A DNA stretch of 32,000 nucleotides, taken from the NCBI GenBank assembly GCA_040220555.1, contig JAVJUO010000195.1; one strand, given 5' to 3'. Origin of the DNA: Coleofasciculus sp. C1-SOL-03 (lineage in GTDB: Bacteria; Cyanobacteriota; Cyanobacteriia; Cyanobacteriales; Coleofasciculaceae). The translations under genes and the position numbers were made by a program. Shown here one piece after another: positions 5,565-27,299 of the stretch (the stretch's first letter is position 1; each line of letters opens with the position of its first letter). The notes under the pieces were generated by a model. It ran no database searches, was not told the origin of the DNA, and was given only the letters and a program-made list of their open reading frames with translations.

Positions 5565-6491
5565 ATGAATAAGAACATGAGAACCAGTATAATTTCAGGA
5601 CTTACTCTAACATTAGCACTTGGTTGTAGCTCTTCCCCACTGTCTGCCCATGAATCTTTCTCCCAGCAAGCTAACACCCTCGACACGAATAGGGAAACAA
5701 TTGCATCAGAAGTAAGCCACACCAAGCAGACATCTCCTCCAGACTTCAATGATTATCCAGCAACCGAATCTTTCTCTGGTGCTCCTGCACCCGTTGACTT
5801 AAGCAGTGACCCAGATGCTAGAAGATTCCGCACTGTTTTACGAGAGGGCGCACAAACCGGACCCAATTTTGCCGGAAAATATACGGTGGTGACTTGGGGA
5901 TGTGGCACAAGCTGTCAATCCGTTGCCATTGTCGATGCTGAAACTGGCTCAGTTTATATGCCAGGTATTGTGGCTGAAGCGGGTGTGAAGCATAAGTTGG
6001 ATAGTCGGCTACTCGTGGTTAATCCGCCAGAAAATACTCCGGGAAATAGACCCGATTGGATGGAAACCAGTTATTACGTCTGGGATGGTACAGAGTTAAC
6101 GGAAGTTTCGACATCATCGTCATCATCGTCACGCAAAGAGGAGGTTGATGATTGGACAGATACCTTCTTTTATGCGGTTCGTCCAGACATGAAAGGGAGG
6201 AGTATTGATCCTTATAGAGAACTTTATGTTCGAGAATGGAATGCCCTGCGCGGGGTCGTAAAGAATTGGGTGGGGTGGATTGAAAGTAACTGTGGTCCTG
6301 CAAGTTCTGACCAGGATCAAGCTAGCGTGAACAATGTAAGTGTTCGTGATAAATTAGCTGATGCGGTTTTCTATGCTCGTCATCCTGAGTTAAATGGGCG
6401 TGAAATCCGCAGTGGAGAAACAGCTTTAGCGAATGAATGGAAATCAATTCATGATCGTATTTCTGGGGTTCTATTTTCAGGTTTTTGCTAA
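5565..6491 (+). CDS. Secreted protein or possible lipoprotein, function unknown
   Basis: 308 aa. The N-terminal signal peptide has a lipobox-like LTLALGCSSS. The C-terminal half carries an internally duplicated motif (see findings). Confidence 0.65.
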   Translation: MNKNMRTSIISGLTLTLALGCSSSPLSAHESFSQQANTLDTNRETIASEVSHTKQTSPPDFNDYPATESFSGAPAPVDLSSDPDARRFRTVLREGAQTGPNFAGKYTVVTWGCGTSCQSVAIVDAETGSVYMPGIVAEAGVKHKLDSRLLVVNPPENTPGNRPDWMETSYYVWDGTELTEVSTSSSSSSRKEEVDDWTDTFFYAVRPDMKGRSIDPYRELYVREWNALRGVVKNWVGWIESNCGPASSDQDQASVNNVSVRDKLADAVFYARHPELNGREIRSGETALANEWKSIHDRISGVLFSGFC

Positions 6492-12100: not shown

Positions 12101-12279
12101 AACAGCATCTGGAACGCAAACGCTAAAACCACACCAGCGATTAATGTGGTAAAAAATTGGGGTCCGTCAAAGATCAGCGCCGCATCTTCAACGGTATCGA
12201 GTTCTGGCTCTATCGGTATCTGTGCTATCCAATCTGCCCAACCCGTGAGTCCTAATGCTAGTCCCACACTCTCAACCAT
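9166..12279 (-). CDS. Large membrane-anchored repeat protein (about 8 copies of a ~98-aa helical module), function unknown
   Basis: 1037 aa with N-terminal multi-TM region (residues ~40-190) and a C-terminal TM (AAAAAAWWLFGTALVSALASAGAGALGVA). The repeats share the pattern LNPxxIxxDLxxLLDDPxxGxxxLRxRLxxFDRDTLVxLLxQRxDLSExxVNQIIDQV. Five copies show an exact 98-aa period (module starts at residues 521, 619, 717, 815, 913). Confidence 0.85.
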   Translation of the reverse strand: MVESVGLALGLTGWADWIAQIPIEPELDTVEDAALIFDGPQFFTTLIAGVVLAFAFQMLLTNLGVALGISFAGGGDSSSSDHKSSESVQGKIRKVGTALGLATLISVTVALFFACLFAVELSLLENPGLGAIVGLVIWATYFSLLVWVSSTTVGSLIGSVVNTATSGFQALVGTATAAIGGSAVKKEVVQTAEATAAAVRRELGSAIDPETIRENLEDYIQAIRPPELNLQKIRGELEDLINDPNLQEIAGSDSLRDINRQTFIDLVSNRSDLSPRDVNRIVDQLEAVWKKTVNRLPSSRDAIAEFREYLQSATPDQLVSDEFTEKLDDLVAELRKRRKAQHPGPLAQAASTGMHSLMGMVMGRVDISDLDMEKIVGQLKSARSQVTEQVGQVSAQIRGGTQDEAYSTVRADVENYLLNKYSWQMHRPTLEREFRDVLYDPEADPATVVQELEQLNRSDFADLLAQRGVFTEERIREISTWLDIIRLEALSVAIAARERAEAIALLAEMEQYLLSTPKEALTPEKIQLNIREILHDPDADYEHLSNRLAQFDRPLFERLVEQRQDLTPVEREAVIVELEKARDRVLDTARETQEALKAKVEAQWMKVQSILSNTGQAQLNPQAIEQELKLLLDEPQAGWLLLRKRAERFDRDTLVQLLNQRQDLSESQINQIIDQVERTWTRVRSIPQKMADTTKEQYDKTMSAIADYLRNTGKPELNPDGIQRDLTKLLDDPQLGTRLIRRRLAAMDRDTLVQLLAQRDDLSEQEVNQIIDQVFSTLRRIAKAPRRWALRTQETAQDFQAAFEDYLRSTGKEELNPAGIKRDMQLLLNEPGAGMSSLQERLSHFDRSTLVALLSQREDISEEDVNQIVDQILKVRDQAIAQIRTVQYRIQSIIDGIFERIRDYLNSLERPELNYDGIKQDVRTLFDDPEAGFDALRDRLSQFDRDTLVAILSSRDDISEADANQMIAQIEQVRTRVLQRAERIQQQAQLRLEQVKYQAQRQAEETRKAAAAAAWWLFGTALVSALASAGAGALGVA

Positions 12280-13907: not shown

Positions 13908-14303
13908 ATGCAAATTTTTGCGATTCGCTTAAAACCCAACGACGATTTAAAGGCAAGTTTAGGGCATTTCGTCAAACAGCACCAGATTGAAGCTGGGTTT
14001 ATGATTACGGCGGTGGGTAGCCTCAAACAAGCCACCCTGCGCTTTGCTGGTCAAAATTATGCTCAAGCCTTCAAGCAGCGCTTTGAAATTGTTTCCCTGG
14101 TTGGCACTCTGTCAATCCATGGTATCCATCTACACATTGCCCTGTCGGATAAAAAAGGGAAAACAATCGGAGGGCATCTTTTAGAAGGATGTATCATCTA
14201 TACAACGGCTGAAATTATTATGGGTGTCAGCGACAATTTAATCTTTTTGAGAACAATGGATGAAACGACAGGATATAAAGAGCTAGAAATCAAACTTAAA
14301 TAA
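13908..14303 (+). CDS. PPC/DUF296-domain protein (PCC-type DNA-binding-like)
   Basis: 131 aa. The pattern IFAIRLKPNDDL...ITAVGSL..ATLRF...FEIVSLVGTLS..G.HLHIALSD..G.TIGGHL is typical of PPC/DUF296 proteins. Confidence 0.7.
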   Translation: MQIFAIRLKPNDDLKASLGHFVKQHQIEAGFMITAVGSLKQATLRFAGQNYAQAFKQRFEIVSLVGTLSIHGIHLHIALSDKKGKTIGGHLLEGCIIYTTAEIIMGVSDNLIFLRTMDETTGYKELEIKLK

Positions 14304-14447
14304 ACTTTACTGTACGACCAGCCGAAATTTGTGTTCCTCAAATCCAGCCAAATCACTCTATCACAGTCGTTTAGGGTCATAAACTCAAAACGGATGCGCT
14401 TAACGCTCACTTAGACAGTCGCGGAAAGCCGATTGGAAAATAAAAAA

Positions 14448-14657
14448 CTATCCTTCACCCAGAATTAGCTGAAGCGTTCGGTGCGCTTCTTGTAGGGTTT
14501 GGAGTTCGGAATTAAACTTCCATAGATAGGGCTTAACTCTATTACCTCCCACAATGGCGGGTTCCCAAGCCGTCAATTGCCATCCTTGCTCAGTTGCAGT
14601 GAGGCAATAATCAATTCGGGGAGGAATAATCGAGGGGTTGGCGTTAGTAATCATCAT
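14448..14657 (-). CDS. Small hypothetical protein
   Basis: 69-aa ORF with no recognisable motif. Called as coding only from ORF length and non-repetitive composition. Confidence 0.35.
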   Translation of the reverse strand: MMITNANPSIIPPRIDYCLTATEQGWQLTAWEPAIVGGNRVKPYLWKFNSELQTLQEAHRTLQLILGEG

Positions 14658-14957
14658 TGCTTGCTTGTAATACCCTTAAGTGGTCAAAAAAATTGTGATT
14701 GAGGGTAAGGAAGCGATCGCCTATAGCTTACTGGTGATGCCCTGAGTCCTATCAATCATCATGCCACCCCTTTCTGGAGATGGTAAGCCTTACCCGCAAT
14801 CTTTATCGAAATATCATAATTAAATTGGAACAAAACACGAGGTTATGGGGGGTTGCCGAAGTCTCTGTGAAATTGAGCTTCATCCAAGCTTCACATAACT
14901 CGGTCGAGTAAATAGACTTATTCTACGGATTGTCACAAAATATACAAGAGAGGTGAT

Positions 14958-14990
14958 GGGGGAGCTGGGGGAGCTGGGGGAGCTGGGGGA
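14958..14990. repeat. Tandem 9-mer array, GGGGGAGCT x3.6
   Basis: Read directly from the sequence. A single inverted copy (CAGCTCCCCC) is at 17631-17640. Confidence 0.9.
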
Positions 14991-15046
14991 CACCTCGGCT
15001 CCGCTCGGTGTGTCAGATGGGGAAAATGAGAGAACTTTCCTTGTCT

Positions 15047-15121
15047 GTGTAATCAGTGTCAATAAGCTCTCACCTCCCTACCCCTATCTCTCCAATAAAT
15101 CCGTGAAATCAGTGTTTTGAC
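15047..15121. repeat. 75-bp inverted-repeat arm (left) flanking the ABC-exporter segment
   Basis: Aligned by hand with the reverse complement of 17379-17453, this arm shows 67/75 identical positions. Identical blocks are GTGTAATCAGTGT, CTCTCAC, ATCTCTCCAAT and GTGAAATCAGTGTTTTGAC. Confidence 0.85.
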
Positions 15122-15138
15122 CAATGACCAATGACAAA
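15118..15138. repeat. STRR heptamer array, TGACCAA x3, containing the ABC-exporter start codon
   Basis: TGACCAA TGACCAA TGACAAA. The ATG at 15124 lies inside the array. Confidence 0.9.
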
Positions 15139-16893
15139 TCACCACTCAAACGCCTATTTGCCTACGGTCACAACTATCGCACGGAAATCTGGCAGGCGAT
15201 CGCTTGTTCGGTTCTGAATAAAATTTTTGACTTAGCGCCACCCGCGTTAATTGGTGCGGCGGTGGATGTGGTGGTTCAAAAAGAGGATTCCTTAATTGCC
15301 CAACTTGGCGTCACCGATACTTTCACCCAACTGTTGATTCTGGCGTTGCTAAGTCTGATCATCTGGGGATTAGAATCCATCTTTGAATATGCCTATAGCC
15401 GACTCTGGCGAAATCTAGCACAGACGATTCAGCATGATTTGCGCTTAGATGCCTACGCCCACTTACAATCCCTCGACTTGGCTTATTTTGAGGATAGGAG
15501 TACGGGTAGGTTGATGTCGATTCTCAATGACGATATCAACCAACTGGAACGCTTTCTGGATGTTGGCGCGAATGAAATTCTTCAGGTATCCACAACCGTT
15601 GTGATTATTGGTGCTGCGTTCTTGATTCTGGCACCTGGCGTGGCTTGGATGGCACTTCTACCCATGCCGTTTATTCTCTGGGGTTCTATCGCCTTTCAGC
15701 GCCGCCTTGCGCCCCGTTATGCTGAGGTTCGGGAAAAGGTGAGTTTACTCAATGGGCAATTAGCCAATAATTTAACCGGAATCACCACGATTAAAAGCTT
15801 TACGGCGGAAGCCTATGAAATCCAGCGCATAACTGCCCAAAGTGAAGCCTATCGTCAAAGTAACCGTCGCGCGATCGCACTCTCGGCGGCGTTTGTGCCA
15901 TTAATTCGTATCCTCATCTTATTGGGCTTTATCGGAATTCTCCTCTATGGGGGGATGGAAGCCGTCGCTGGGAGATTAGCGGTTGGAACTTATAGCGTGT
16001 TAGTCTTCCTCACGCAACGCTTATTGTGGCCCCTCACCCGACTCGGACAAACCCTGGATCTCTATCAACGGGCGATGGCGTCTACAACCCGGGTGATGAA
16101 TCTGTTAGATACGCCGATTACCATGCATTCAGGCGAGATTTCTTTGCCTGTGAGTCAGGTAAAAGGGGAGTTAGCGTTAAAAAATATTACCTTTTCCTAT
16201 CAGGGACGCCATCCTGTGATAGAAAATCTGTCTCTGCATATTCCGGCGGGAAAAACCATTGCCATTGTTGGTGCGACAGGTTCGGGGAAAAGTACCCTCG
16301 TCAAGTTATTATTGCGACTCTATGAAGTCCAAGACGGAACCATAACCCTAGATGGGATTGACTTGCGCCAGCTTCAGTTAGCTGATTTACGCCAAGCCAT
16401 TGGTTTAGTTAGCCAAGATGTATTTCTGTTTCATGGCACAGTGCGAGAAAATATTACCTATGGTAGTTTTGATGTCACGCTATCCGAGGTAGAAGCCGCC
16501 GCCGAAATTGCCGAAGCCCATGAATTTATTTGCCAACTTCCCCAAGGCTACGACACAATTATCGGGGAGAGAGGACAAAAGTTATCCGGTGGACAGCAGC
16601 AGCGACTGGCAATTGCTCGTGCTATCTTAAAAAATCCCCCGGTGCTGATCCTCGATGAAGCCACGTCTGCCGTGGATAACGAGACAGAAGCCGCCATTCA
16701 GCGATCGCTAGAGAAGATTACCCAGAACCGAACCACGATCGCGATCGCTCATCGCCTGTCTACAGTACGCAATGCTGATTGTATTTATGTGATGGATAAG
16801 GGTAAATTAGTTGAACAAGGCACCCATGAAGAATTACTGGCACAACAAGCTATTTATGCGATGCTTTGGCGGGTTCAGTCTGGTGTTAAATAA
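15124..16893 (+). CDS. ABC transporter, fused permease/ATPase (MsbA-like exporter type)
   Basis: 589 aa. The N-terminal half has six TM segments. ATPase motifs: Walker [10 protein letters not shown], signature [14 protein letters not shown], Walker [13 protein letters not shown], and H-loop IAIAHRLST. Confidence 0.9.
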
Positions 16894-16928
16894 GTCATTG
16901 GTCATTGGTCATTAGTCATTTGTCATTG
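16894..16928. repeat. STRR heptamer array, GTCATTG x5 (the TTGGTCA type), inverse of the array at 15118
   Basis: GTCATTG GTCATTG GTCATTA GTCATTT GTCATTG, beginning immediately after the TAA stop at 16891-16893. Confidence 0.9.
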
Positions 16929-16941
16929 GGGATTGTCAACC

Positions 16942-17376
16942 ATGATTATGTTCAGTAAACCTCAGCCGAATAAGCCAGAGGATCAGTGGAAAGTTAAGCT
17001 AAATCAGTTTGCTAAAAAACATGGTAAAGAACTGGCGGCGCTTTCATGGGGACTCTTTCTAGAGAAGGGCGAAAGCGACGAAACGATAGGAATTGACCTG
17101 AAACCTAGACCCCATTTTGTCTATTGTCCCAAAGCGGCGCTGGAAAAATTAAATCAAAAGGTTGAGAACTATCTACAGGAAGTGGTAGGTATTGTGAATG
17201 CTCACCAACCGGATAAAGAAGTGTTAATGATTGGGATTGGGAATGACCAAATTAAATTAATTCATTTTGAACCGGAATCTCCGCCTCCAGTATGTTTTGA
17301 GGAAGTGGGGAAAGATGTCGATACATTAATTGAAGAGTTAGAACAGCGTCTGAGCGAATTTGGTATTCGTCCTTAG
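16942..17376 (+). CDS. Conserved hypothetical protein
   Basis: The ORF track starts at TTG 16933. ATG 16942 (MIMFSKPQPNKPEDQW...) is the more likely start. About 144 aa, soluble, with no motif I can name. Confidence 0.55.
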   Translation: MIMFSKPQPNKPEDQWKVKLNQFAKKHGKELAALSWGLFLEKGESDETIGIDLKPRPHFVYCPKAALEKLNQKVENYLQEVVGIVNAHQPDKEVLMIGIGNDQIKLIHFEPESPPPVCFEEVGKDVDTLIEELEQRLSEFGIRP

Positions 17377-17378
17377 TT

Positions 17379-17453
17379 GTCAAAACACTGATTTCACAGA
17401 TTGATTGGAGAGATTGGGGTGGGGAAGTGAGAGGTTAGTTACACTGATTACAC
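17379..17453. repeat. 75-bp inverted-repeat arm (right), partner of 15047-15121
   Basis: Begins 2 nt after the stop at 17374-17376. See the left-arm entry for the alignment. Confidence 0.85.
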
Positions 17454-17544
17454 TGAGTTCCATCCGGGTCAAAACCAAACGTTAGCGATAAAACCCGCCC
17501 CTACAATAGACGTTCCCATTGCTCCCTCATCTCCCTCATCTCCC

Positions 17545-17569
17545 AGACGTTCCACCGGAACGTCTCTAC
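17545..17569. repeat. Variant copy of the GAGACG palindrome family (AGACGTTCC-ACC-GGAACGTCTCTAC)
   Basis: A 9-bp stem shares the AGACGT...ACGTCTCTAC arms, but the centre differs and the left GTAG is missing. Confidence 0.7.
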
Positions 17570-17590
17570 AACCCCATCTCTCCCATCTCC

Positions 17591-17625
17591 TGATAACTGA
17601 TAACTGCTCACTGATAACTGATAAC
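17591..17625. repeat. STRR heptamer array, TGATAAC x5 (one TGCTCAC variant)
   Basis: Read directly from the sequence. It is flanked by a CTCCCTCAT 9-mer array (17523-17546) and CCCATCT-type repeats. Confidence 0.9.
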
Positions 17626-17704
17626 TCCCCCAGCTCCCCCTGCATCCTCATCCCGCGATCGGTACAATAATAGTTAACAAACGACTATCCAACTCTGCAA
17701 ACTG

Positions 17705-18475
17705 ATGACGCCTGACGTAGAAACCTTACCCCAGCAACCCGACACCAGTGAAACCGACAACCTCGACGAACTTCCCAATGATGTCGAGATGTCACTGTTT
17801 GATCACTTAGAAGAGTTGCGGCGGCGCATTTTCTATTCGCTGCTGGCTGTAGCCGTTGGTGCGATCGGCTGCTTTGTCGCGGTTAAATACATTGTTCAGG
17901 TATTGGAAATCCCGGCTCAAGGCGTTAAATTTTTGCAATTGGCTCCCGGTGAATACTTCTTTGTTTCCCTGAAAGTAGCGGGTTACAGTGGTTTGCTGGT
18001 AGCGACACCTTTCATTCTTTACCAAGTGATTCAGTTTGTCTTACCGGGATTAACTCGCCGCGAACAACGCTTGATTGCACCTATAGTTTTCGGTTCGAGT
18101 ATTCTGTTTTTTGTCGGGTTGGCATTTTCCTACATTGCCTTAATTCCCGCCGCGCTGAAATTCTTTATTAGTTACGGCGCTGATGTGGTTGAGCAAGCTT
18201 GGTCAATTGAACGGTATTTTGAATTTGTGCTGCTTCTCATGTTCAGTACAGGGATAGCGTTTCAAGTCCCAATTATTCAGCTTCTCTTGGGAAATTTAGG
18301 CATTGTCTCATCCTCTCAAATGCTTTCCGGTTGGCGGATTGTTATTTTAGGTGCAGTGATTCTCGGTGCTGTGCTAACTCCTTCCACTGATCCTCTGACT
18401 CAAAGCTTACTTGCTGGCGCGGTTATCGGTCTTTACTTTGGCGGAATTGGTCTGGTTAAGCTGTCAGGCAAGTGA
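17705..18475 (+). CDS. tatC: Sec-independent (Tat) protein translocase subunit TatC
   Basis: 256 aa. The motif [19 protein letters not shown] is followed by six TM segments, with FQVPI and TPSTDP motifs typical of TatC. Confidence 0.9.
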
Positions 18476-18513
18476 TTGAGTTCGTAGTTTGTAGTACGGG
18501 AACCTTAGCCTGT

Positions 18514-18519
18514 TATAAT
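18514..18519 (+). promoter_or_regulatory. Candidate -10 box (TATAAT) for the non-coding RNA upstream of iscB
   Basis: A perfect TATAAT hexamer sits in the tatC-iscB spacer. It predicts a transcription start near 18526, about 17 nt before the first conserved-looking helix. There is no convincing -35 element (TTTGTA at 18488-18493 has 20-nt spacing). Confidence 0.4.
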
Positions 18520-18525
18520 TCTGGG

Positions 18526-18762
18526 TTGACTATTAGCGTAACAGCTATCCACTCAACACAGGACAACTGTGGACAAGATAGCCAGACTGAGGCTTAAAAG
18601 CCTACGTTAAAGGGGTTAAGACACCTACGAATGCTTTCCAGTTTGTAGCTCTGTCGTCAAGGATTAAACAGGTGTATTGAGTTAAGCCAGTGTCTTTGAC
18701 CGAACAAGCTTCTTTAACTTTGTCGAGGAACACGTTACCGGAGCAATCCGAGATTAAAACTT
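18526..18762 (+). ncRNA. Candidate omega-RNA (guide + scaffold) of the IscB nuclease; the 5' end is approximate
   Basis: This ~237-nt non-coding stretch lies directly 5' of iscB on the same strand. It contains many nested or long-range helices: GCTATC 18544-18549 with GATAGC 18577-18582; CACAG 18557-18561 with CTGTG 18567-18571; GGCT 18591-18594 with AGCC 18599-18602; AAGACAC 18619-18625 with GTGTCTT 18690-18696; CTACGAA 18625-18631 with TTTGTAG 18642-18648; GTTAAAG 18607-18613 with CTTTAAC 18712-18718. A CGGA-GCAA-TCCG GNRA hairpin sits at 18739-18750. Confidence 0.55.
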
Positions 18763-20064
18763 ATGTTTGTGTTTGTACTGGACAAAAATAAAAAACCACT
18801 CGCTCCTACTCACCCAGCACGCGCAAGAAAACTGCTTCGTACTGGCAGAGCGTCAGTGTTTCGTCGCTTTCCATTCACCGTCATTTTGCACGACACAGAG
18901 GTAGAGAACTCTCAAGTCACGAAATACAGATTAAAAATCGACCCCGGGGCGAAAGTCACAGGGATTGCCATCCTCAAAAGCAATGTGGTGATATGGGCAG
19001 CCGAATTAACTCATAGAGGCTTCGCTATCCGAGATGCACTTACCACCCGTCGTCAATTACGCAGGTCGCGACGCAATCGCCAAACTAGATACCGTAAAGC
19101 ACGGTTCAATAACCGCCGCCGTCCCAAAGGGTGGTTGCCACCATCTCTAAACAGTCGAGTTCAAAATATATTGACTTGGGTAAGGCGATTATCAGGAGTT
19201 TGTCCGATCACGGGCATTAGCCAGGAGCTAGTCAGGTTCGATCTACAAAAGATGCAGAACTCAGAGGTATCTGGCGTCGAGTATCAACAGGGCGAGCTGG
19301 CTGGCTACGAGGTTCGCGAGTATCTCCTGGAAAAGTTCAATCGCTGTTGTGTCTACTGCGGTGCAACCGACACTCGACTAGAAGTCGAACACGTCAAACC
19401 ACGCTCACTTGGCGGCAGTAACCGCGTGAGCAACCTAGCCATCGCTTGTCATAGGTGCAACCAAGCTAAAGGCAATCAAGACATTCGAGAATTCTTGGCA
19501 GGCAAACCAAGTGTTCTCAATCGGATTCTTGCTCAACTCAAGAAGCCATTAGTTGATGCTGCTGCTGTTAATACGACCCGATGGGTTTTGTTTGAGCGAC
19601 TCAAAGCCACGGGGCTACCCGTGGAAACTGGGATGGGTGGACAAACCAAGTTTAATCGCATTCGTCTGGGATTAGAAAAAACTCACTGGGGAGATGCGGT
19701 AGCTGTTGGCAGTTCAACACCCCACCGGGTCATAGTCAAAGTCGTCAAACCTTTGATAATCAAGGCTACAGGTTACGGGCATCGACGGATGTGCAATATC
19801 ACCAAGTTTGGCTTCCCTCAAGTGAATAACAAGGGTGAGCTAGCTGTTCGTTCTAGGGTGAAAAAGGTTCACGGCTTCCAGACTGGGGATATGGTAAAGG
19901 CTGCTGTCCCCAAAGGGAAAAACGCAGGTACTCATGTTGGTCGAGTCACAGTTAGAAAAACCGGGCAGTTTGATATTTCCACATCTATCCAGAAGCTTCA
20001 AATCATTAACCACAAATACTGCACACCAATCCATCGGCATGATGGCTATAGTTATGCCACATAA
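18763..20064 (+). CDS. iscB: IscB-type RNA-guided endonuclease (split RuvC with inserted HNH; RRXRR/bridge helix; PLMP-like N-terminus)
   Basis: 433 aa. PLMP-like N-terminus: FVLDKNKKPLAPTHPARARKLL. RuvC-I: RLKIDPGAKVTGIAIL (D60). Arg-rich helix: TTRRQLRRSRRNRQTRYRKARFNNRRRPKGW. RuvC-II: GISQELVRFD (E155). HNH: CCVYCGATDTRLEVEHVKPRSLGGSNRVSNLAIACHRCNQAKGN. RuvC-III: KTHWGDAVAV (H308, D311). A ~100-aa C-terminal beta-rich domain follows. Confidence 0.85.
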   Translation: MFVFVLDKNKKPLAPTHPARARKLLRTGRASVFRRFPFTVILHDTEVENSQVTKYRLKIDPGAKVTGIAILKSNVVIWAAELTHRGFAIRDALTTRRQLRRSRRNRQTRYRKARFNNRRRPKGWLPPSLNSRVQNILTWVRRLSGVCPITGISQELVRFDLQKMQNSEVSGVEYQQGELAGYEVREYLLEKFNRCCVYCGATDTRLEVEHVKPRSLGGSNRVSNLAIACHRCNQAKGNQDIREFLAGKPSVLNRILAQLKKPLVDAAAVNTTRWVLFERLKATGLPVETGMGGQTKFNRIRLGLEKTHWGDAVAVGSSTPHRVIVKVVKPLIIKATGYGHRRMCNITKFGFPQVNNKGELAVRSRVKKVHGFQTGDMVKAAVPKGKNAGTHVGRVTVRKTGQFDISTSIQKLQIINHKYCTPIHRHDGYSYAT

Positions 20065-20162
20065 TCCACTTTTGTCCATTGATTTAATGACTAGAGGCGC
20101 ACCGATCGCTCAGGAATTGACTCATGTCCGCTTGAATCCCCCTAAATCGTGAAACCTCAGTC

Positions 20163-20222
20163 GGGGCGGGTTTAGTGACATCTGGGTGCAACTGAAAAGA
20201 TAGTCGTGAAACCCGCTCCTAC
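20163..20222. repeat. GGGGCGGGTTT...AAACCCGCTCC(TAC) long hairpin repeat
   Basis: An 11-bp stem (one G-T pair) joins 20163-20173 to 20209-20219, followed by TAC. It belongs to the same family as the hairpins at 13284-13516 and 27202-27225. A half-site AAACCCGCCCCTAC is at 17491-17504. Confidence 0.8.
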
Positions 20223-20253
20223 ACACATTACGCCCCATGCCGTAAAAAGTCAG

Positions 20254-20297
20254 ATCTCCCTCATCTTCCCCATCTTCCTCATCTCCCCCATCTTCCC
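20254..20297. repeat. Imperfect CATCTYCCC-type short tandem repeats abutting the CHAT gene stop
   Basis: ATCTCCC TCATCTTCCC CATCTTCC TCATCTCCCC CATCTTCCCC. The stop codon (CTA on +) is at 20298-20300. Confidence 0.8.
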
Positions 20298-23200
20298 CTA
20301 CCAAGGACTACCAATCATCGTAAACGCTGCCCAATAATAAGGATGAGAGAAATTTTTGTCGGGTAATCCCGATACAACAGGGCGATTTTCCCCTTCTCCC
20401 AACCCACGCAATTCTCCGGATTCCACACGCACCTCCCCTCGCAGCATGGCGATTTGGGCGCGTCGCAGTGCCTCTGCTTTAATCGTTACATCCGGTTGAC
20501 CCAATTGATTGTAGAATTCGCTCATTAGGGCTAAAGAACCGCCATCACTGACGTACCAAAGACTGGCTAACGCTGACTTAACCCCAGCTTTAACCGCTAA
20601 TCCGGCAAAGCCTAACTCCGCTTCTATACTGCCAAAAGCAGTGCGACAGGCGCTTAAAACTAATAGGTCTACTTGGGGCTTCTCATGCCAACCCAGTTGG
20701 CGCATTTGGTCGAGTTGCAGTTTCGTGTCCCAAAGCTGAATATAAGAATTGCTGGGGTCTCCTTCTTGAAAATCCGCATGACTGGCAAGGTGGATGATTT
20801 GCCAAGGCTTTTGTTGGCGCTGAGTTTGCAGATTCTTGAGGGTGAATTGGTCGTTGAGGTAAGCTTCCCCTGACCAGACGTTTTGAGTAATCGTTTCTAG
20901 TTCAATGGGGACAGCAGGTAAGGGTCTTTGGTCAGTGAATTCAGAAGCGCCCATTGCCAGGACTGGGGCATCTTTGACGGGATTGTAGCGGGTATTGGTC
21001 AGGCTGATGCTGGGGATGGAACCGAGGGCGTATTTTTCGATGAGAAATTGTTCCCCGTCGTGTAAAGCCGCCATGGGGATAGTGCGTAAACCTGCGTCCA
21101 TGGAAAAGATGAGGGTGTCAATACCGAGGGCTTCTAGATGCGGTTCTAGGGGGGCAATCATCCAGTTATACAGTTGTTTTGCTGGCGTTAAATAGGCGGT
21201 AGGGCGTCGGTAATTGGTAACGGTTTGGCGGAATTCAACTAGAGTCTTTTTCAGAGTTTTGGCATTAGCGGCGGGAATGGTTTTGCGGATGGGAGTACCG
21301 TCGGGAACAACCATGATGAGTTCCAGTTGGTCGGGTAGGGAAACGGCGTAGACGATAACCGGGTGAGTGCCAGTTTCAGTGGTGATGGTGTTTAGGGTAT
21401 GGCGGATGGTTTCGACGCTGGTTTGTTCGTTGGCGATGTCTTCACCTAAGTAGTCTTCGTATTCTCCTTCAAATAGGTCATCAATGGCGGGAATGGCATC
21501 ATTGAGGTTTTGCGTCAGCAGGTTGGGGATGTTGATGCGTCCCGTGTCTAAGTTTCCTGTACCGGGAATCTGCCAGATAACACGAGATTCCCCGGTGAGG
21601 GGGTCTTGGTTGACTGAAGTTTCAGCACCGACAATATCGCCAATGAGGAAGGCTAAATCGGTTTGGGCGTCGCTGGGAGAATCAGAGGGGCGTTGTGAAC
21701 CTGGTGGGGTGGGGGGTTGAGTAGGGAGTTGAGGGTCAGCACCCGGTGAAGGAGAGGGTTGAGTGGGGGGTTGAGGATCAGAACCGGGTGCGGGGACGGA
21801 GATAATTTGAATGCCGTCTTGGGTGTGGGTGTAGGGAAATTCGGCGGTGGGAGAAATTGTTTGTTCGGGTACGGTATTACCTGTGGTAATTGCCCCGGCT
21901 GTACCGTTGGTGCTGGCATCACCAACCATAAAGGGAGTGACGCCTGCACCGCCGTGACGAATCGTAATTGTACCGCCTGCGGTGACGCCGCCTGTGGAAA
22001 TGCTGGCGGTTGTACCATTGAGATTGGGGAAAGAATCAGTGGCGCGGAAGAAGCTGGGGGTAGTGATTTCTACAGCGCCACCTGTGCCAGCGATGCCGCC
22101 TTCGGTGTTAATGCCTGCGACGGTAATATTGCCATTATCTGAGTTGAGGGTAATGTTACCCCCATTGCTAATAGCTGAATTAGAGACAATGGGTAGGGAA
22201 CCTGTATTGATGCTATCAGCAGCATTGAGGGTAATATCACCGCCATTACCATTACTGGAAAACGAACTGATACTGCCTTGATTGGTAATGGTGTCGTTGA
22301 GGATAGTAATGGCATCACCGCTATCAATGTCAATTGTGCCACCATTTCCATTACCACCGCTAGCGATGATGGTTTGGGTGGTAATATTGCCAGGAGCATT
22401 GAGGGTGATATTGCCACCTGCGCCGTTACTTAAAGAATTGAGAATGCCTGTGATTATTTCGTTGCCACTGGTAAGGTGTATGTCGCCACCATCACCGTTA
22501 ACGCCATTGGTGAGAAGGTCTTGGGTGGTAATTTTGCCTGTAGATTGGAGCGTGATCTCACCACCATTATTATTGCTTAAACCGTTGAGAATGGCTGTGG
22601 TGATGTTGCCGTTGCTATTGAAGTTAATTGTTCCACCTTGACCGTTTTCGCTACCGAATAAAATACTGTCCGTGGTGATATTTCCTGCTGCATCGAAAGT
22701 GATGTTGCCACCATTGGTATTTCCAGAAACGTTGAGAATGGCTGTCGTAATAATATCGCTGTCACTATTCAGATTAATGGTTCCCCCCTGACCATTATCG
22801 CTGCTAGCGATGATAGCGTTGGTGTTAATTTGACCAGCAGCTTGGAGGGTAATCGTGCCGCCAGTACCATTAGTTCCAGCACGAAGTATTCCGCTACTCG
22901 TGTTAATTCCGCCCCGATTATTGATCAGAGTAATATTTCTACCTGTGATATTACTCGCTGTGATATCGCCACTAGAATTATTCGTTAACCCCTCACCTGT
23001 ACCGAGAATTAAGGTTGTATCGCCTGTACCCGAATTGAGTGTAACTTCAGGGGCGATGGAGATGACCGCTTGACCAGGGTCACGATGAGCATTAATCACT
23101 CCATTGGCAGTGGTTTCGTTGGCAATCAGGCTGAGGTTACCATTATTGGTGAAGATAGAGGAATTGACGAGAATGCTGCGCCCTGCCTGAAAGGTAAGTC

Positions 23201-25769
23201 CACCACCATTTCCACTGGGGTTGTTGGTGACAATCGGTTGCTCCACGATAATGTCTGTATTGGCTTGCATCACCACATCAGTACCTGTATTGGTAATTGC
23301 AGTGATGGCGCTAGGGGCAATGCTCACAGATTCAGCAGGGTTGTCATTGAACCTCAAACTTAATTCCCCACCGCTGTCACCATCGCGAGAGAATAAAAAG
23401 GCTTGCCCTGCATCATTGACTCCCCCGGAGGTGTTACGAAAAGCGCCAATCAGGATGTCGCTGCCCACTGCCGCTACTGACCAGCCGAACCTGCCCTCTG
23501 GGACAGGTTGGGGATTGTCGAAGGTTTGCAGCAGTGTTCCATCCCGGTTAAATAAAAAGGCTTGCCCTGCATCATTGACTCCCCCGGAGGTGTTGCGTTG
23601 AGCGCCAATCAGGATGTCGCTGCCCACTGTCGCTACTGACCCGCCGAACCTGCCCTCTGGGACAGGTTGGGGATTGTCGAAGGTTTGCAACAGTGTTCCT
23701 GTTGGGTTAAATAAAAAGGCTTGCCCTGCCTTAGGCAATCCCCCGGATGTGTTATTAAAAGCGCTAATCAGAATGTCGCTGCCCACTGCCGTTACTGACG
23801 CACCGAAATGACCAGGTTCTACAGGTTGGGGATTGTCAAAGGTTTGCAACAGTGTTCCATCCCGGTTAAATAAAAAGGCTTGCCCTGCACCACTGACTCC
23901 CCCAGAGGTGTTACTAAAAGCGCCAATCAGGATGTCGCTGCCCATTGCCGCTACTGAGATGCCGAAGTTGCCACCTGCGACAGGTTGGGGATTGTCAAAG
24001 GTTTGCAGTAGTGTTCCTGTTGGGTTAAATAAAAAGGCTTGCCCTGCCCTAGGCAATCCCCCGGAAGTGTTACCAACAGCGCCAATCAGGATGTCGCTGC
24101 CCACCGTCGCTACTGACCTGCCGAAATGACCATATTCTACAGGTTGGGGATTGTCAAAGGTTTGCAACAGTGTTCCATCCCGGTTAAATAAAAAGGCTTG
24201 CCCTGCATCTTCAAATCCCCCGGAGATGTTGAGGTCAGCGCCAATCAGAATGTCGCTGCCCACTGCCGCTACTGAGAAGCCGAATAAGCCATTTTCTATA
24301 GGTTCGGGATTAAGAAAAGTAACTAAAGGATTATTCGGGTCTCTTATGGTAATTGTTTTCGGGTCAAGCAGCAATGTCCCCGGTTGACCAAAAGATGCCC
24401 CCGCATCCACAAACCCGGTAAAAATCAGCAATTCTTTTCCCGACACCTCCACTAATCCTCCATCTCCCCCACTATCTCCCCCACGAGCGCTGATGTTACC
24501 GTAGAAGCGGGTAAGTTCATCCGACCAAAGAACCACTTCACCCCCATCTGCTGTTACTCCAGACTCTGAGGAAACGCCATCGGCGGTAATTGTCGAATCG
24601 GCACTGACGAGGGTTTGCCTCGCACGGGGTAGGGTATTCTGTCCTTGATAGTCTCCACCAATATGAATGGTGCCGCCACCCCCCATCCCGGAGGCGTCAA
24701 CAGTAGCAGCAAAGAGTCCCACGTTATCGCCTAATACAGTAACATTACCGCCCATCCCAGAGGAGAGGGCATTGCCTGAATCTTCTACATCCGACACGTC
24801 CAGACTACCCGAAACAATCGCTGTTCCAGCTTCATGGGGTATGGTTATCCCGGATTCGGTTAACTGCACCTGTTGAGTCTGAGTCACACTCAACCCTGTT
24901 TCCATCGTTTCAGTTTCTTCTCCGGTGAGTAATGCCGCTAAATCCAGGGGACTCACAGGTAACATTTGCCCTGTACTATCCTCTAGTGGTTCAATCTCCA
25001 AACTCAACACCTGTCCCGGTTGACTAATCCGGACTAAGTTCTCTCCCGGTACAGCAGCGATGGTAATTGTTCCTCCCGGTGCGGTTATTTGCCCTGTGTT
25101 CACCACTGTGCCACCCAGTAAGGTTAAATTCTGCCCTTCTGTGACAGCTAAATCCCCAGCATTGACAATACTGCCCGACTGCGCCAAATCAAAGGCAAAC
25201 TGACTAGGATTCCCAATTAACGTGTCGTAGTTATTATCACCAAAGGCATGAAACCAACCATTCTCCTCAAACCCAATTCCCGTCGCCGTAGTTGCGGTAA
25301 AATCCCCCATCACATTTAACTGGGAATTCGCCCCAAACACAATCCCCGCCGGATTCATTAAAAATAAATTGGCGTTCCCCCCCGTCGCCTGAATCAACCC
25401 ATCAATCATGGAGGCATTCCCGCCCATTACACGGGCTAAGATATTTTGAATATCTGGTGTAGAGAGAAAATTAGCAATCTCATTAGCCGAAAGTCCAAAC
25501 TCCTGGAAACTATGAAACAGGTTTGCCCCATCCCCCGATAGAGAACCCCCAGAAATATCGTACTGATTGCCATCAATCGTCACCACCGTACCCGTACCAT
25601 CCTCAGCCTGGGTAATCGATTGCGCCTGAACCGGAGACATGGAGTGAAGCGTAACCATGCCCAGAGAAATTATTCCCCCTAGAGAAAATAATCCAGGTAA
25701 TTTGCCAACGGAGGAGTTGCACATTTTGCTAACCTGACTTTCACAAATATGCCTAGAATTCTGCCACAT
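20298..25769 (-). CDS. Giant secreted protein: TPS (filamentous-haemagglutinin N-terminal) domain + FG-GAP-like repeats + beta-helix repeats + Pro-rich linker + C-terminal CHAT domain
   Basis: 1823 aa. Signal peptide (the likelier start is M16 at 25724: MCNSSVGKLPGLFSLGGIISLGMVTLHSMSPVQAQ). TPS motifs: ANLFHSFQEFGL, NILARVMGGNASMIDGLI and NLFLMNPAGIVFG. Six copies of FGxSVAxVGSDILIGA...AGQAFLF..GTLLQTFDNPQPV. GGxITL-type beta-helix repeats. Linker PAPGSDPQPPTQPSPSPGADPQLPTQPPTPPG. CHAT His/Cys dyad context: IIHLASHADF and LLVLSACRTA. Confidence 0.9.
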   Translation of the reverse strand: MWQNSRHICESQVSKMCNSSVGKLPGLFSLGGIISLGMVTLHSMSPVQAQSITQAEDGTGTVVTIDGNQYDISGGSLSGDGANLFHSFQEFGLSANEIANFLSTPDIQNILARVMGGNASMIDGLIQATGGNANLFLMNPAGIVFGANSQLNVMGDFTATTATGIGFEENGWFHAFGDNNYDTLIGNPSQFAFDLAQSGSIVNAGDLAVTEGQNLTLLGGTVVNTGQITAPGGTITIAAVPGENLVRISQPGQVLSLEIEPLEDSTGQMLPVSPLDLAALLTGEETETMETGLSVTQTQQVQLTESGITIPHEAGTAIVSGSLDVSDVEDSGNALSSGMGGNVTVLGDNVGLFAATVDASGMGGGGTIHIGGDYQGQNTLPRARQTLVSADSTITADGVSSESGVTADGGEVVLWSDELTRFYGNISARGGDSGGDGGLVEVSGKELLIFTGFVDAGASFGQPGTLLLDPKTITIRDPNNPLVTFLNPEPIENGLFGFSVAAVGSDILIGADLNISGGFEDAGQAFLFNRDGTLLQTFDNPQPVEYGHFGRSVATVGSDILIGAVGNTSGGLPRAGQAFLFNPTGTLLQTFDNPQPVAGGNFGISVAAMGSDILIGAFSNTSGGVSGAGQAFLFNRDGTLLQTFDNPQPVEPGHFGASVTAVGSDILISAFNNTSGGLPKAGQAFLFNPTGTLLQTFDNPQPVPEGRFGGSVATVGSDILIGAQRNTSGGVNDAGQAFLFNRDGTLLQTFDNPQPVPEGRFGWSVAAVGSDILIGAFRNTSGGVNDAGQAFLFSRDGDSGGELSLRFNDNPAESVSIAPSAITAITNTGTDVVMQANTDIIVEQPIVTNNPSGNGGGLTFQAGRSILVNSSIFTNNGNLSLIANETTANGVINAHRDPGQAVISIAPEVTLNSGTGDTTLILGTGEGLTNNSSGDITASNITGRNITLINNRGGINTSSGILRAGTNGTGGTITLQAAGQINTNAIIASSDNGQGGTINLNSDSDIITTAILNVSGNTNGGNITFDAAGNITTDSILFGSENGQGGTINFNSNGNITTAILNGLSNNNGGEITLQSTGKITTQDLLTNGVNGDGGDIHLTSGNEIITGILNSLSNGAGGNITLNAPGNITTQTIIASGGNGNGGTIDIDSGDAITILNDTITNQGSISSFSSNGNGGDITLNAADSINTGSLPIVSNSAISNGGNITLNSDNGNITVAGINTEGGIAGTGGAVEITTPSFFRATDSFPNLNGTTASISTGGVTAGGTITIRHGGAGVTPFMVGDASTNGTAGAITTGNTVPEQTISPTAEFPYTHTQDGIQIISVPAPGSDPQPPTQPSPSPGADPQLPTQPPTPPGSQRPSDSPSDAQTDLAFLIGDIVGAETSVNQDPLTGESRVIWQIPGTGNLDTGRINIPNLLTQNLNDAIPAIDDLFEGEYEDYLGEDIANEQTSVETIRHTLNTITTETGTHPVIVYAVSLPDQLELIMVVPDGTPIRKTIPAANAKTLKKTLVEFRQTVTNYRRPTAYLTPAKQLYNWMIAPLEPHLEALGIDTLIFSMDAGLRTIPMAALHDGEQFLIEKYALGSIPSISLTNTRYNPVKDAPVLAMGASEFTDQRPLPAVPIELETITQNVWSGEAYLNDQFTLKNLQTQRQQKPWQIIHLASHADFQEGDPSNSYIQLWDTKLQLDQMRQLGWHEKPQVDLLVLSACRTAFGSIEAELGFAGLAVKAGVKSALASLWYVSDGGSLALMSEFYNQLGQPDVTIKAEALRRAQIAMLRGEVRVESGELRGLGEGENRPVVSGLPDKNFSHPYYWAAFTMIGSPW
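23368..24321. repeat. Six tandem 159-bp (53-aa) intragenic repeats (FG-GAP-like blades)
   Basis: The anchor GGCTTGCCCTG recurs at 23400, 23559, 23718, 23877, 24036 and 24195, an exact 159-bp period. The outer limits are approximate. Confidence 0.9.
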
Positions 25770-26226
25770 TTTTTTGAGATTGGGTAAGGGTGAGTTTGCC
25801 CCAACTTTGCGGGTTAACCTTAGGGAATGTTTGGCTAAAACCGCCCCAACCGTTACGCCTGTTTTCTTAGCGGTTTATGTTGTGAATCCTTGACTTAATA
25901 TTTGGTTACAAAAAATTAATCAAATCGAGAGTTACTTTAACGGTTAACTGGCGGTTGAAAACACGCCACCCAGATAGATTCAGTCAGGTTGTACAAAGTA
26001 TTACCTTTAAATCATTACTCTCTAGATTGTAAATAAATATGAAAATGATTTACTCTGAGTAAAAAATTCGATTTAATAGGATATGTGCTGTACAGGCATC
26101 TACCACCAACCCCTCATCAATTTAAGCAGTTTTACCTAAATAATCAGGGAACTTTCGACCGAGTAGCACGACTAGCTAGGAATAACTGGAAACACCTAAA
26201 TATTAATTCAGGGAATAGCGAGTATT

Positions 26227-27063
26227 ATGACAAAACAAACCTACTCTCTACTCTTAGCAACCACCTCATTGGTTTGCTCCCTTTCGCTGGTGAGCTTCTC
26301 GCGCTATGCCACGCCAGTGCTGGCAGAATCTCAACCCGTTAATTTATTAGCCAGTAACGTTTTATCTGGTTCATTGAAGTTCGATTTCAGATCTCCACGA
26401 ACTGAAGGAGAACCCAAAGAAAGTGGGACAATCGGCACTCGTGGCGGATGTTCCACTGATGAATCCTTGTCTCCGTCTCTAACTCCGCTAACACCCAATA
26501 CGGTTCAAGGATTAACGGAAAACCAGGACACTGTGGATGAATATCCCACGTTAACCGTGAGTGATCATCCCAGCTTCTTTGTCTATGTACCCAAAACGAG
26601 TGCAACCACAGGAGAGTTTATTTTAACCAATCAACAGGGGACGCAAGAGATTCATTATGCACTTGTAACTCTTCCAGAAACGCCGGGTATTATCAGTGTT
26701 AAACTGCCCACCAATCTAGACCCTCTAGAGATTGGTCAAGTTTATCAATGGTCATTTAGTCTGAAATGTCATGATTCAGATGCAACGGGAAATCCGACTG
26801 TCTTAGGATGGATTGAACGCACTGAACCCAACCCAGCTTTGGAAAAAGACTTAGACAAGGTGAAGCCTTTAGAGTTAGCAGCCTTGTACGGAAATTATGG
26901 CGTTTGGCACGACCTTTTAGCTACATTGGTTGAACTCAGACTGTCTCATCCAGAGGATTCTAACCTAACAATGATGTGGGAAAATCTGCTCAAATCAGAA
27001 TCCGTGAAACTAGAAAAAATTTCTCAAGCGCCTCTGGTTGAAAGTACGCCAGTGGAGTATTGA
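26227..27063 (+). CDS. DUF928-like secreted protein
   Basis: 278 aa with a signal peptide (LVSFSRYATPVLAES). The motifs GTIGTRGGCS, IGQVYQWSFSLKC and ALYGNYGVWHDLLATLVELR match my recollection of DUF928 proteins, which commonly neighbour CHAT and CHASE2 genes in cyanobacteria. Confidence 0.65.
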   Translation: MTKQTYSLLLATTSLVCSLSLVSFSRYATPVLAESQPVNLLASNVLSGSLKFDFRSPRTEGEPKESGTIGTRGGCSTDESLSPSLTPLTPNTVQGLTENQDTVDEYPTLTVSDHPSFFVYVPKTSATTGEFILTNQQGTQEIHYALVTLPETPGIISVKLPTNLDPLEIGQVYQWSFSLKCHDSDATGNPTVLGWIERTEPNPALEKDLDKVKPLELAALYGNYGVWHDLLATLVELRLSHPEDSNLTMMWENLLKSESVKLEKISQAPLVESTPVEY

Positions 27064-27201
27064 GAATTTGGCGAGGCTGGCAATGGGTTGGGAGAGGTTG
27101 AGACGAAAACAGTGGAAATCAAACCGACTAAATTAAGCCAAATTGTAATGATCTGACACGGCTAAACTGGTGGAATAGATTCTACATGTTTTCTGGGCAC
27201 A

Positions 27202-27225
27202 CGTTGGGAAAGGGCGCACGTCAGT
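27202..27225. repeat. GGGCGCAC-GTCA-GTGCGCCC + CTAC hairpin repeat
   Basis: An 8-bp perfect stem with a 4-nt loop, followed by CTAC. It lies in the DUF928-cyclase spacer. Confidence 0.85.
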
Positions 27226-27274
27226 GCGCCCCTACAGTGCCGACTACGAACCTGGGTTAATTCAGTGCTATTCA

Positions 27275-27299
27275 ATGAATGACAAATGACCAATGACAA
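27275..27299. repeat. STRR heptamer array, ATGACMA x3.5, containing the cyclase start codon
   Basis: ATGA ATGACAA ATGACCA ATGACAA. ATGs fall at 27275, 27279, 27286 and 27293, and the gene uses 27293. Confidence 0.9.

Follow-up and report, generated by a model that had tools for sequence, protein, structure and literature searches.

The window, a stretch of 32,000 nucleotides of contig JAVJUO010000195.1, was found to contain a locus which is very probably an intact, non-autonomous IscB transposon (ISC-type, IS200/IS605 superfamily) of approximately 1,558 bp, situated inside HIP1 (highly iterated palindrome 1). The palindrome HIP1 (GCGATCGC) is the most over-represented 8-base word of cyanobacterial genomes. 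The subfamily to which the element belongs inserts within HIP1 (GC^GATCGC or G^CGATCGC), as was found in occupied and empty alleles of two independent loci and in the junctions of related copies. The host of the locus is a Coleofasciculus-like cyanobacterium. The IscB family, its omega RNA, its structures and its biological model are all published, and in these respects the locus is an ordinary intact member.

Occupied and empty alleles

The exact TatC protein of the window (the product of the gene preceding the element), used as a search query, retrieved occupied contigs only and no empty site. An empty allele (L085) was obtained from a metagenome scan with the same protein; its identity to the window was 91-95%, and the two were collinear over window positions 14198 to 18548. 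The empty site of L085 read ...GACTACTAGCGTAACA GCGATAGT TCAGGAATTGAC..., with 8 nt (GCGATAGT) between the flanks, and the occupied site of the window read ...GACTATTAGCGTAACA GC[TATCCAC...GCGCACC]GATCGC TCAGGAATTGAC..., where the square brackets enclose the element. The outer GC and GATCGC were assigned to the host sequence because L085 keeps 8 nt between the same flanks. The rejoined site of the window would read GCGATCGC, from which the GCGATAGT of L085 differs at two positions.

An independent test was provided by a Microcoleus copy (L037), for which the syntenic locus of other strains was fetched through the neighbouring GntR gene. Seven of the eight Microcoleus empty alleles were found to contain ...gagcg(g/a) GCGATCGC... 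and the remaining one contained GCGGTCGC. The occupied allele read ...gagcgg GC[TATTCACC...GGCGTAGC]GATCGC..., that is, an exact HIP1 split without duplication. The element was without a target-site duplication in both of these occupied/empty pairs.

A scan with one genome per species gave 80 related loci, nearly all of them cyanobacterial. Fourteen independent insertions of the subfamily, all cyanobacterial, were found to start with GC|TAT and to end with ...TTAGAGGCGTA(C/G)C|GATCGC.

Boundaries, copies and mobility

The boundary of the element carries a 1-nt ambiguity, the element being either 18546-20103 or 18545-20102, with the cut at G^C or GC^G. Read by the TnpA convention, the element has the minus strand of the window as its top strand, so that the left end (LE) lies 3′ of the iscB stop codon and the right end (RE) lies at the omega RNA. 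The copies L005/L006 (95.3% identity, both at one site) and L008 (93.6%), all from Coleofasciculus, aligned to the window at 18544-20109 only, and their flanks were unrelated to those of the window. The left flanks differed at every copy. The LE region of distant copies contained conserved ...TTGTCCATTGA...TTAGAGGCGTA(C/G)C nucleotides. Neither the window nor the related loci examined contained miniature or solo-end derivatives of the element.

Exact matches to the window protein came solely from four short assemblies (L001-L004) built from public sequencing runs. The assemblies L002, L003 and L004 stop at position 20100 of the window, 3 nt short of the element end, and L001 continues to 20284; the three ends suggest a graph branch at the element end, arising from more than one copy or from a mixed population. 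The copies of Scytonema sp. NIES-4073 (L079, L083) and of strain HK-05 (L060), which are of the HIP1 type, were longer (1,779 and 1,605 bp) than the usual length of approximately 1,555-1,585 bp. Translation from the start of the reported match showed an early break in their iscB frames, and these copies may carry an insertion or a frameshift.

Several points weigh against the locus as a HIP1-directed, mobile IscB element. The ancestral HIP1 at the window's own site would be reconstructed by rejoining its flanks, and the 92%-identical allele L085 carries two substitutions there. The target-adjacent motif (TAM) GATCGC is a prediction deduced solely from the insertion site. The C-terminal domain of the protein showed 46-74% identity among HIP1-type elements and 34-52% identity to other types, a weak distinction with overlapping ranges. 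No convincing hairpin was found in the LE (single-sequence DNA fold, z = 0.3 against shuffles), and the alignment fold of eight LE sequences gave only a 5-bp stem, in which GCGAT pairs with an internal word resembling ATCGC and covariation is absent. No Y1_Tnp domain was found by Pfam scans in the element or among the window open reading frames (ORFs) of at least 120 aa, and tblastn with two approximate TnpA seeds, a weak test, gave no match in 990 kb of related loci. Only one copy of the element was present in the 32-kb window, and its present-day mobility is putative.

The locus is non-autonomous because the element contains no tnpA, as is the case for approximately 98% of iscB loci. Since approximately 1.5% of iscB genes lie near tnpA (Meers et al. 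2023), the missing gene is the usual state of IscB elements and points to a non-autonomous member rather than to exclusion from the superfamily. The initial annotation, which had been made from the sequence of the window, had described the locus as borne by IS200/IS605; this holds in the non-autonomous sense only, as no TnpA is present.

An improbable alternative is that the locus is an immobile, domesticated or decaying relic, fixed at its site without a transposase, with the nuclease idle or recruited by the host. The absence of tnpA from the window and the related loci searched and of an LE hairpin would suit such a relic, as would the recovery of the same sequence in the same context from four sequencing runs. 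The close C. chthonoplastes copy L008 (3001-4276), a decaying copy of the window's element, likewise contains a frameshifted iscB (389-aa ORF), with its ends and its HEARO RNA intact (117.5 bits). Against a relic, the ORF of the window is intact with all catalytic residues present, and the window iscB gave a dN/dS of 0.17 when compared with the L005 copy. The omega RNA region showed 10 mismatches in 217 nt against L005, beside an ORF dS of 0.138, and is thus more conserved than the synonymous sites; both the iscB ORF and the omega RNA region are under purifying selection. Copies of 93-95% identity are present at other sites, and the site itself is occupied or empty among close relatives. Active IscB elements are normally without tnpA (Meers et al. 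2023), and an IS605 family listed for C. chthonoplastes (IS605-1_CC) has one terminus in common with another ISC family of that species, according to Kapitonov et al. (2016).

Junctions and target specificity

The right junction was GATCGC in 12 of the 14 copies, and in the other two it varied at the outermost two bases only (GATCAG in L033 and GATCGG in L049). No motif was conserved past GATCGC among the 14 copies. The window contained 26 HIP1 sites against 0.29 expected; landing sites would be very abundant, because HIP1 occurs approximately once per 1.2 kb in the genome.

Much less probable than a relic is the reading in which GC and GATCGC are the termini of the element itself, the true target and TAM lying elsewhere and HIP1 not being the target. 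Both motifs are invariant or nearly so across the copies, like true termini, and the Rfam HEARO model opens with GC, which is paired in stem P1. Such termini predict a direct joining of the flanks in empty alleles, whereas L085 contains the 8 nt GCGATAGT and seven Microcoleus empty alleles hold exactly GCGATCGC between the same flanks. The lack of a conserved motif beyond GATCGC and the variation of its outermost bases, as host sequence would vary, also argue against it, and the analogous first two bases (GT) of other elements were verified as target by Kapitonov et al. (2016).

Insertion upstream of an intact HIP1 (N|GCGATCGC) was also considered. It was rejected because six copies, that of the window among them, read ...CCGATCGC at the right junction, and one and the same HIP1 mutation would be needed in independent insertions.

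Relatives starting with GTCAAC were found in Alicyclobacillus, Vreelandella and Ectothiorhodospira and in many cyanobacteria. Three Ectothiorhodospira copies with defined ends were found to finish with ...ATGAA, the reverse complement of TTCAT, and TTCAT is the TAM measured for GstIscB (Meers et al. 2023). The first stem of the RNA was found to shift in step with the target type, from GTCAAC/GTTGAC to GCTATC/GATAGC.

The IscB protein

The initial annotation had taken the ORF 18763-20064 for an IscB rather than a plain HNH endonuclease, with an uninterrupted frame and a set of quoted motifs, and the analysis bore this out. The frame starts with ATG on the + strand, encodes 433 aa without interruption and contains all of the quoted motifs. 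The NCBIfam equivalog NF040563 (RNA-guided endonuclease IscB) matched aa 3-316 with 464 bits (cut-off 175), followed by Pfam RRXRR with 248 bits at aa 3-177 and Pfam HNH with 47-48 bits at aa 196-239. The profile search placed the protein in IscB, and neither among plain HNH proteins nor among group II intron maturases. The domains were found in the IscB order, i.e. a PLMP-like N-terminus, RuvC-I, an Arg-rich bridge helix (aa 94-122), RuvC-II, HNH, RuvC-III and a C-terminal domain. The N-terminus contained PLAP at aa 12-15 in place of PLMP; residues 1-50 aligned with the PLMP domains of TbaIscB, HfmIscB and OgeuIscB, and the predicted local distance difference test (pLDDT) score was approximately 90 over this region.

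The catalytic residues of OgeuIscB are D61, E193, H340 and D343 in RuvC and H247 in HNH, and its PLMP motif lies at 14-17 (Kato et al., PMC9640706). The residues D60, E155, H308 and D311, expected by the initial annotation to be catalytic, were found to align with D61, E193, H340 and D343, and H210 aligned with H247 in both pairwise and profile alignments. Their codons were checked in the sequence: D60 at 18940-18942 (gac), E155 at 19225-19227 (gag), H210 at 19390-19392 (cac), H308 at 19684-19686 (cac) and D311 at 19693-19695 (gat). The HNH domain contained C196, C199, H210, C229 and C232. The five catalytic residues and the four HNH cysteines were invariant in an alignment of 92 homologues.

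Sequence matches in the PDB were TbaIscB (3e-43), HfmIscB (7e-29) and OgeuIscB (approximately 5e-25). An AlphaFold2 model was built on the 92-homologue alignment (pLDDT 78.7, pTM 0.68). When it was compared with the PDB by Foldseek, ranks 1-10 were occupied by IscB/IsrB complexes with omega RNA and target DNA (E 1e-22 to 5e-16), with 8csz as the top match (E = 1e-22) and 9liq, 9k30, 9nvu, 8dmb, 7xht and 7utn among the others. The TM score was approximately 0.55, for a multi-domain model, and Cas9 structures scored far more weakly than the IscB/IsrB complexes. The best PDB matches were thus IscB-omegaRNA-DNA complexes, in agreement with the fold that had been anticipated. A beta-rich C-terminal domain (aa ~320-433, or ~330-432 in the model) was predicted in the position of the WED/TAM-interacting domains; the profile alignments reach only about aa 345 of the solved IscBs. 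Guide-dependent, RNA-guided cleavage by the window IscB would be expected by analogy with the characterised IscBs.

One search scored upwards of 8,000 homologues. Several of them, including Coleofasciculus proteins, are called RNA-guided endonuclease IscB by NCBI, and the JGI annotation of close homologues is McrA. The expectation that routine pipelines would give such a locus only an 'HNH endonuclease' or RRXRR label is outdated, since NCBI has an IscB model and names close homologues IscB.

A protein-guided HNH homing endonuclease that recognises HIP1, with the upstream RNA as a leader or regulatory sequence, is hardly credible. The HNH domain, the site-specific insertion into a palindrome and the McrA name given to homologues would be in keeping with it. 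Against this, the IscB equivalog match spans the whole RuvC-bridge helix-HNH-RuvC core, the fold is like that of IscB ribonucleoproteins, the upstream RNA is HEARO, established in the literature as the guide RNA of IscB, and the left flank is different at each copy, as would be expected of a guide taken from the adjoining DNA. That the protein is a small type II CRISPR effector (Cas9 or Cas9d), whole or fragmentary, can practically be dismissed. Weak partial matches confined to the HNH region (Cas9d 50 bits, Cas9 15 bits) and the occurrence of Cas9 structures lower in the fold search would be in keeping with it. Against this, both matches lie far under the family cut-offs (375 bits for Cas9d, 100 bits for Cas9), the 433-aa protein has no recognition (REC) lobe, and neither a repeat array in 17300-20400 nor an adjoining cas gene was found, the neighbours being tatC and a CHAT/TPS gene.

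Omega RNA and predicted guide

The 287-bp spacer from the tatC stop to the iscB start (18476-18762) had been called non-coding and highly structured, in agreement with the present results. No ORF was found in it, its fold as RNA gave z = -2.1 against shuffled sequences with a centroid that reproduces the HEARO stems, and it contained a full-length HEARO match (Rfam RF02033; gathering score 83, E = 1.6e-25, model positions 1-211 of 211). This was the sole Rfam match in the window, and it ends 24 nt before the iscB start codon. HEARO was later shown to be the omega RNA (guide RNA) of IscB in the literature, including Meers et al. (2023). A HEARO match upstream of iscB on the same strand was present in 19 of 20 related loci tested, the copy of Scytonema sp. 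HK-05 (L060) being the only one without a match above the threshold. RF02033 does not contain the downstream elements, and the mean extent of the omega RNA before the ORF is 242 bp (Meers et al. 2023).

The terminal stem-loop pairs GCTATC (18544-18549) with GATAGC (18577-18582), followed by the presence of an inner CACAG/CTGTG stem. DNA folds of 18544-18582 gave z = -2.26 and -1.90 for the two strands, and the Rfam structure line agrees with the pairing.

The 16 nt directly 5′ of the scaffold (CTATTAGCGTAACAGC) are the putative guide, placed by the HEARO start and the element boundary with a length assumed from characterised IscBs. This 16-mer was unique in the window. The transcript start at 18526 given by the initial annotation lies near the present estimate and differs from it in detail, the guide being placed at approximately 18530-18545 and the scaffold from 18546. 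The tatC stop (18475) lies 68 nt before the element, or 70 bp before its body at 18546, and the + strand from tatC to iscB showed no site resembling a promoter or a terminator. The transcript with the guide and the omega RNA probably arises by read-through from tatC, by analogy with IscB elements in general, which tend to share the orientation of the upstream gene (Meers et al. 2023).

Table 1. Positions of the element, its parts and the adjoining host features in the window.
Feature	Position	Strand	Remarks and evidence
tatC	17705..18475	+	co-oriented with the element; Pfam TatC 219 bits
Predicted 16-nt guide CTATTAGCGTAACAGC	18530..18545	+	flank-derived, directly 5′ of the scaffold; HEARO start and element boundary
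Left part (GC) of split HIP1	18544..18545	.	host sequence; empty alleles
HEARO RNA (Rfam RF02033), conserved core of omega RNA	18544..18738	+	124.1 bits
Terminal stem-loop	18544..18582	+	omega RNA P1; on the opposite strand, subterminal hairpin of the transposon RE
Omega RNA scaffold, putative, to iscB start codon	18546..18762	+	217 nt; HEARO match
Transposon body	18546..20103	+	~1,558 bp; omega RNA and iscB only; copies and empty sites
iscB	18763..20064	+	433 aa; profile, alignment and fold evidence
Transposon end 3′ of iscB stop (LE in TnpA convention)	20065..20103	+	minus strand GGTGCGCCTCTAGTCATTAAATCAATGGACAAAAGTGGA
Right part (GATCGC) of split HIP1, predicted TAM	20104..20109	.	3′ of protospacer on iscB-sense strand; empty and occupied alleles

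Proposed mechanism

The following steps are modelled on what is established for the IscB family (Altae-Tran 2021, Meers 2023, Kapitonov 2016). Transcription continuing from tatC would give an RNA in which the 5′ 16 nt (CTATTAGCGTAACAGC) serve as the guide and the next ~217 nt as the IscB-bound scaffold. A Y1 TnpA encoded elsewhere would excise the element as single-stranded DNA, and rejoining of the flanks after excision would restore ...CTATTAGCGTAACAGC|GATCGC.... The IscB-omegaRNA complex would then recognise this donor joint by the guide and a GATCGC-type TAM and cut both strands, the HNH domain acting on the target strand and RuvC on the non-target strand, followed by recombination with a sister copy that would reinstate the element. 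While the element is in place, TATCCA and not GATCGC would follow the sequence matched by the guide, and the element would escape self-cleavage because of this replacement.

The positions of the motifs may be compared with those of the characterised elements, in which the omega RNA lies at the transposon RE, the TAM adjoins the LE and the guide lies outside the boundary, the TAM and the transposon-encoded motif (TEM) being similar but non-identical (Meers et al. 2023). In the window the opposite strand of 20104..20109 reads GCGATC and adjoins the LE. On the TnpA top strand the TAM is GCGATC(G) and the RE ends with ...GGATA(G), which are alike, not identical.

Implications of the HIP1 link

The IscB locus itself adds little, since thousands are known, together with an Rfam RNA family, solved structures and the naming of homologues by NCBI. 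The link to HIP1 adds a protein-coding mobile element that exploits HIP1, a palindrome whose function has been debated for approximately 30 years. It gives a concrete TAM prediction (GATCGC) for a compact, cyanobacteria-native nuclease, and genome-editing tools are limited in cyanobacteria. The RE/P1 stem and the target motif were also found to have changed together within one IscB clade.

HIP1 carries GATC (DmtA) and CGATCG (DmtC) methylation. It is quite possible, though put forward tentatively, that a cyanobacteria-restricted IscB lineage re-tuned its transposition target and its nuclease TAM from the ancestral AT-rich TTCAT to HIP1, and that cleavage or transposition could be gated by methylation. 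The insertion specificity belongs to the observations given above; the nuclease TAM and the methylation link are predictions. If the proposal is true, every HIP1 site (approximately 1 per kb) would be a potential landing and homing site, and methylation gating could limit the action of the element, e.g. to newly replicated DNA. In that case HIP1 biology would have a natural probe in this element, which would also supply a cyanobacteria-native nuclease with a GATC-type TAM.

Surroundings of the element

The synteny of L085 past the insertion site covers only 12 nt (TCAGGAATTGAC) and breaks at window 20121/20122 (L085 4342-4360). Beyond the break L085 contains a histidine kinase and a Mur ligase gene, and the window contains a 1,823-aa TPS/FG-GAP/CHAT gene. 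The IscB insertion is thus only 12 bp away from the boundary of a rearrangement or an island. The window region 16749-28580 (11.8 kb) was found to contain zero HIP1 sites, against approximately 15 expected at the flanking density, and the remaining 20 kb contained 26. The HIP1-free stretch spans tatC, the IscB element, the giant CHAT gene, DUF928 and part of a CHASE2 cyclase, and its GC content was not clearly different. The DNA on the right-hand side of the IscB element may have been acquired recently, in keeping with the synteny break.

In the intergenic regions 17513-17665 and 20149-20305 a 9-nt unit (CTCCCTCAT / CCCCATCTT type) was repeated in tandem runs. A dispersed repeat of approximately 68 nt adjoins the tandem runs (17572-17639 and 20156-20225) and recurs in L085 at other positions and orientations (754-821, 3192-3259 and 5815-5931); it looks like a small cyanobacterial repeat family. 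The 83 nt at window 17374-17456, just past the stop of the ORF 16933-17376, were 85.5% identical to L008 2320-2401, which sits just past the stop of an unrelated 640-aa ORF of C. chthonoplastes. Shared synteny was rejected for this match, given the different context, and 17374-17456 is probably a small dispersed element or a shared terminator module. The 1,037-aa ORF 9166-12279 (minus strand) gave weak partial Pfam matches only (a Bac_DNA_binding fragment and DUF2087), neither of which passes alone. The 308-aa ORF 5565-6491 and the 147-aa ORF 16933-17376 gave no Pfam match.

Comparison with known systems

The OgeuIscB-omegaRNA complex (PDB 7utn, 7xht, 8csz, 8ctl) was the best fold match. It has the same domain order from PLMP to the C-terminal WED/TI (TAM-interacting) domains, its catalytic residues correspond one to one (D60/E155/H210/H308/D311 to D61/E193/H247/H340/D343), and its guide RNA is likewise encoded upstream of the gene. 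The identity was only approximately 16-21% over the structural alignment, and OgeuIscB has 496 aa against 433 aa for the window protein. The TAM of OgeuIscB is NWRRNA, as given in PMC12660989, against the GATCGC predicted for the window IscB.

The Coleofasciculus IscB P0006 of GenBank (82% identity, named RNA-guided endonuclease IscB) and the copies L005/L006 from metagenome-assembled genomes (95%) belong to the same subfamily, with the same ends and RNA, and their insertion sites differ from that of the window. HEARO RF02033 has the same helices as the window RNA in the same place upstream of an HNH ORF. Its consensus first stem is GUCAAC/GUUGAC, whereas that of the window is GCUAUC/GAUAGC, the RE end and P1 having changed together.

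Another mobile sequence for which HIP1 has been reported as the insertion site is the SDR5 repeat of Nostocaceae (PMC5861425, citing Elhai et al. 2008). Unlike the IscB element of the window, SDR5 is tiny and non-coding and is said to be restricted to Nostocaceae. The statement that HIP1 may be the SDR5 insertion site is the nearest prior one. No publication tying HIP1 to IscB, HEARO or IS200/IS605 was found, and the HIP1 papers in the searched literature were without mention of IscB or IS200, as was the 2010 Weinberg paper of HEARO; an earlier report is possible, as the 2009 HEARO paper and Elhai 2008 lay outside the search, and the priority of the HIP1-IscB link is uncertain.

The ISC1/ISC2 elements described by Kapitonov et al. 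(2016) include ISC1-1_CC and ISC1-2_CC of C. chthonoplastes PCC 7420 and ISC1-1_MA of Microcystis. They are likewise IscB-only elements, of 1.3-1.7 kb, without target duplication, with Y1 TnpA acting in trans and with verified empty sites. They insert in the middle of the target (e.g. GT|GG, GT|GA) or upstream of it (N|ATGA). The GC|GATCGC (or G|CGATCGC) of the window subfamily was not among the targets in the searched part of their Table 1, which were GT|GG, GT|GA, GT|GT, TT|GG, TT|GA, GT|AA, AA|GG and N|ATGA.

GstIscB/ISGst of Geobacillus stearothermophilus (Meers et al. 2023) is likewise non-autonomous; its omega RNA lies at the RE, its guide derives from the flanking DNA, and its TAM adjoins the LE and is common to transposase and nuclease. 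It is also co-oriented with the upstream gene, and cleavage of the donor joint is its proposed role. Its TAM is the AT-rich TTCAT, whereas that of the window subfamily would be GCGATC(G), a part of HIP1.

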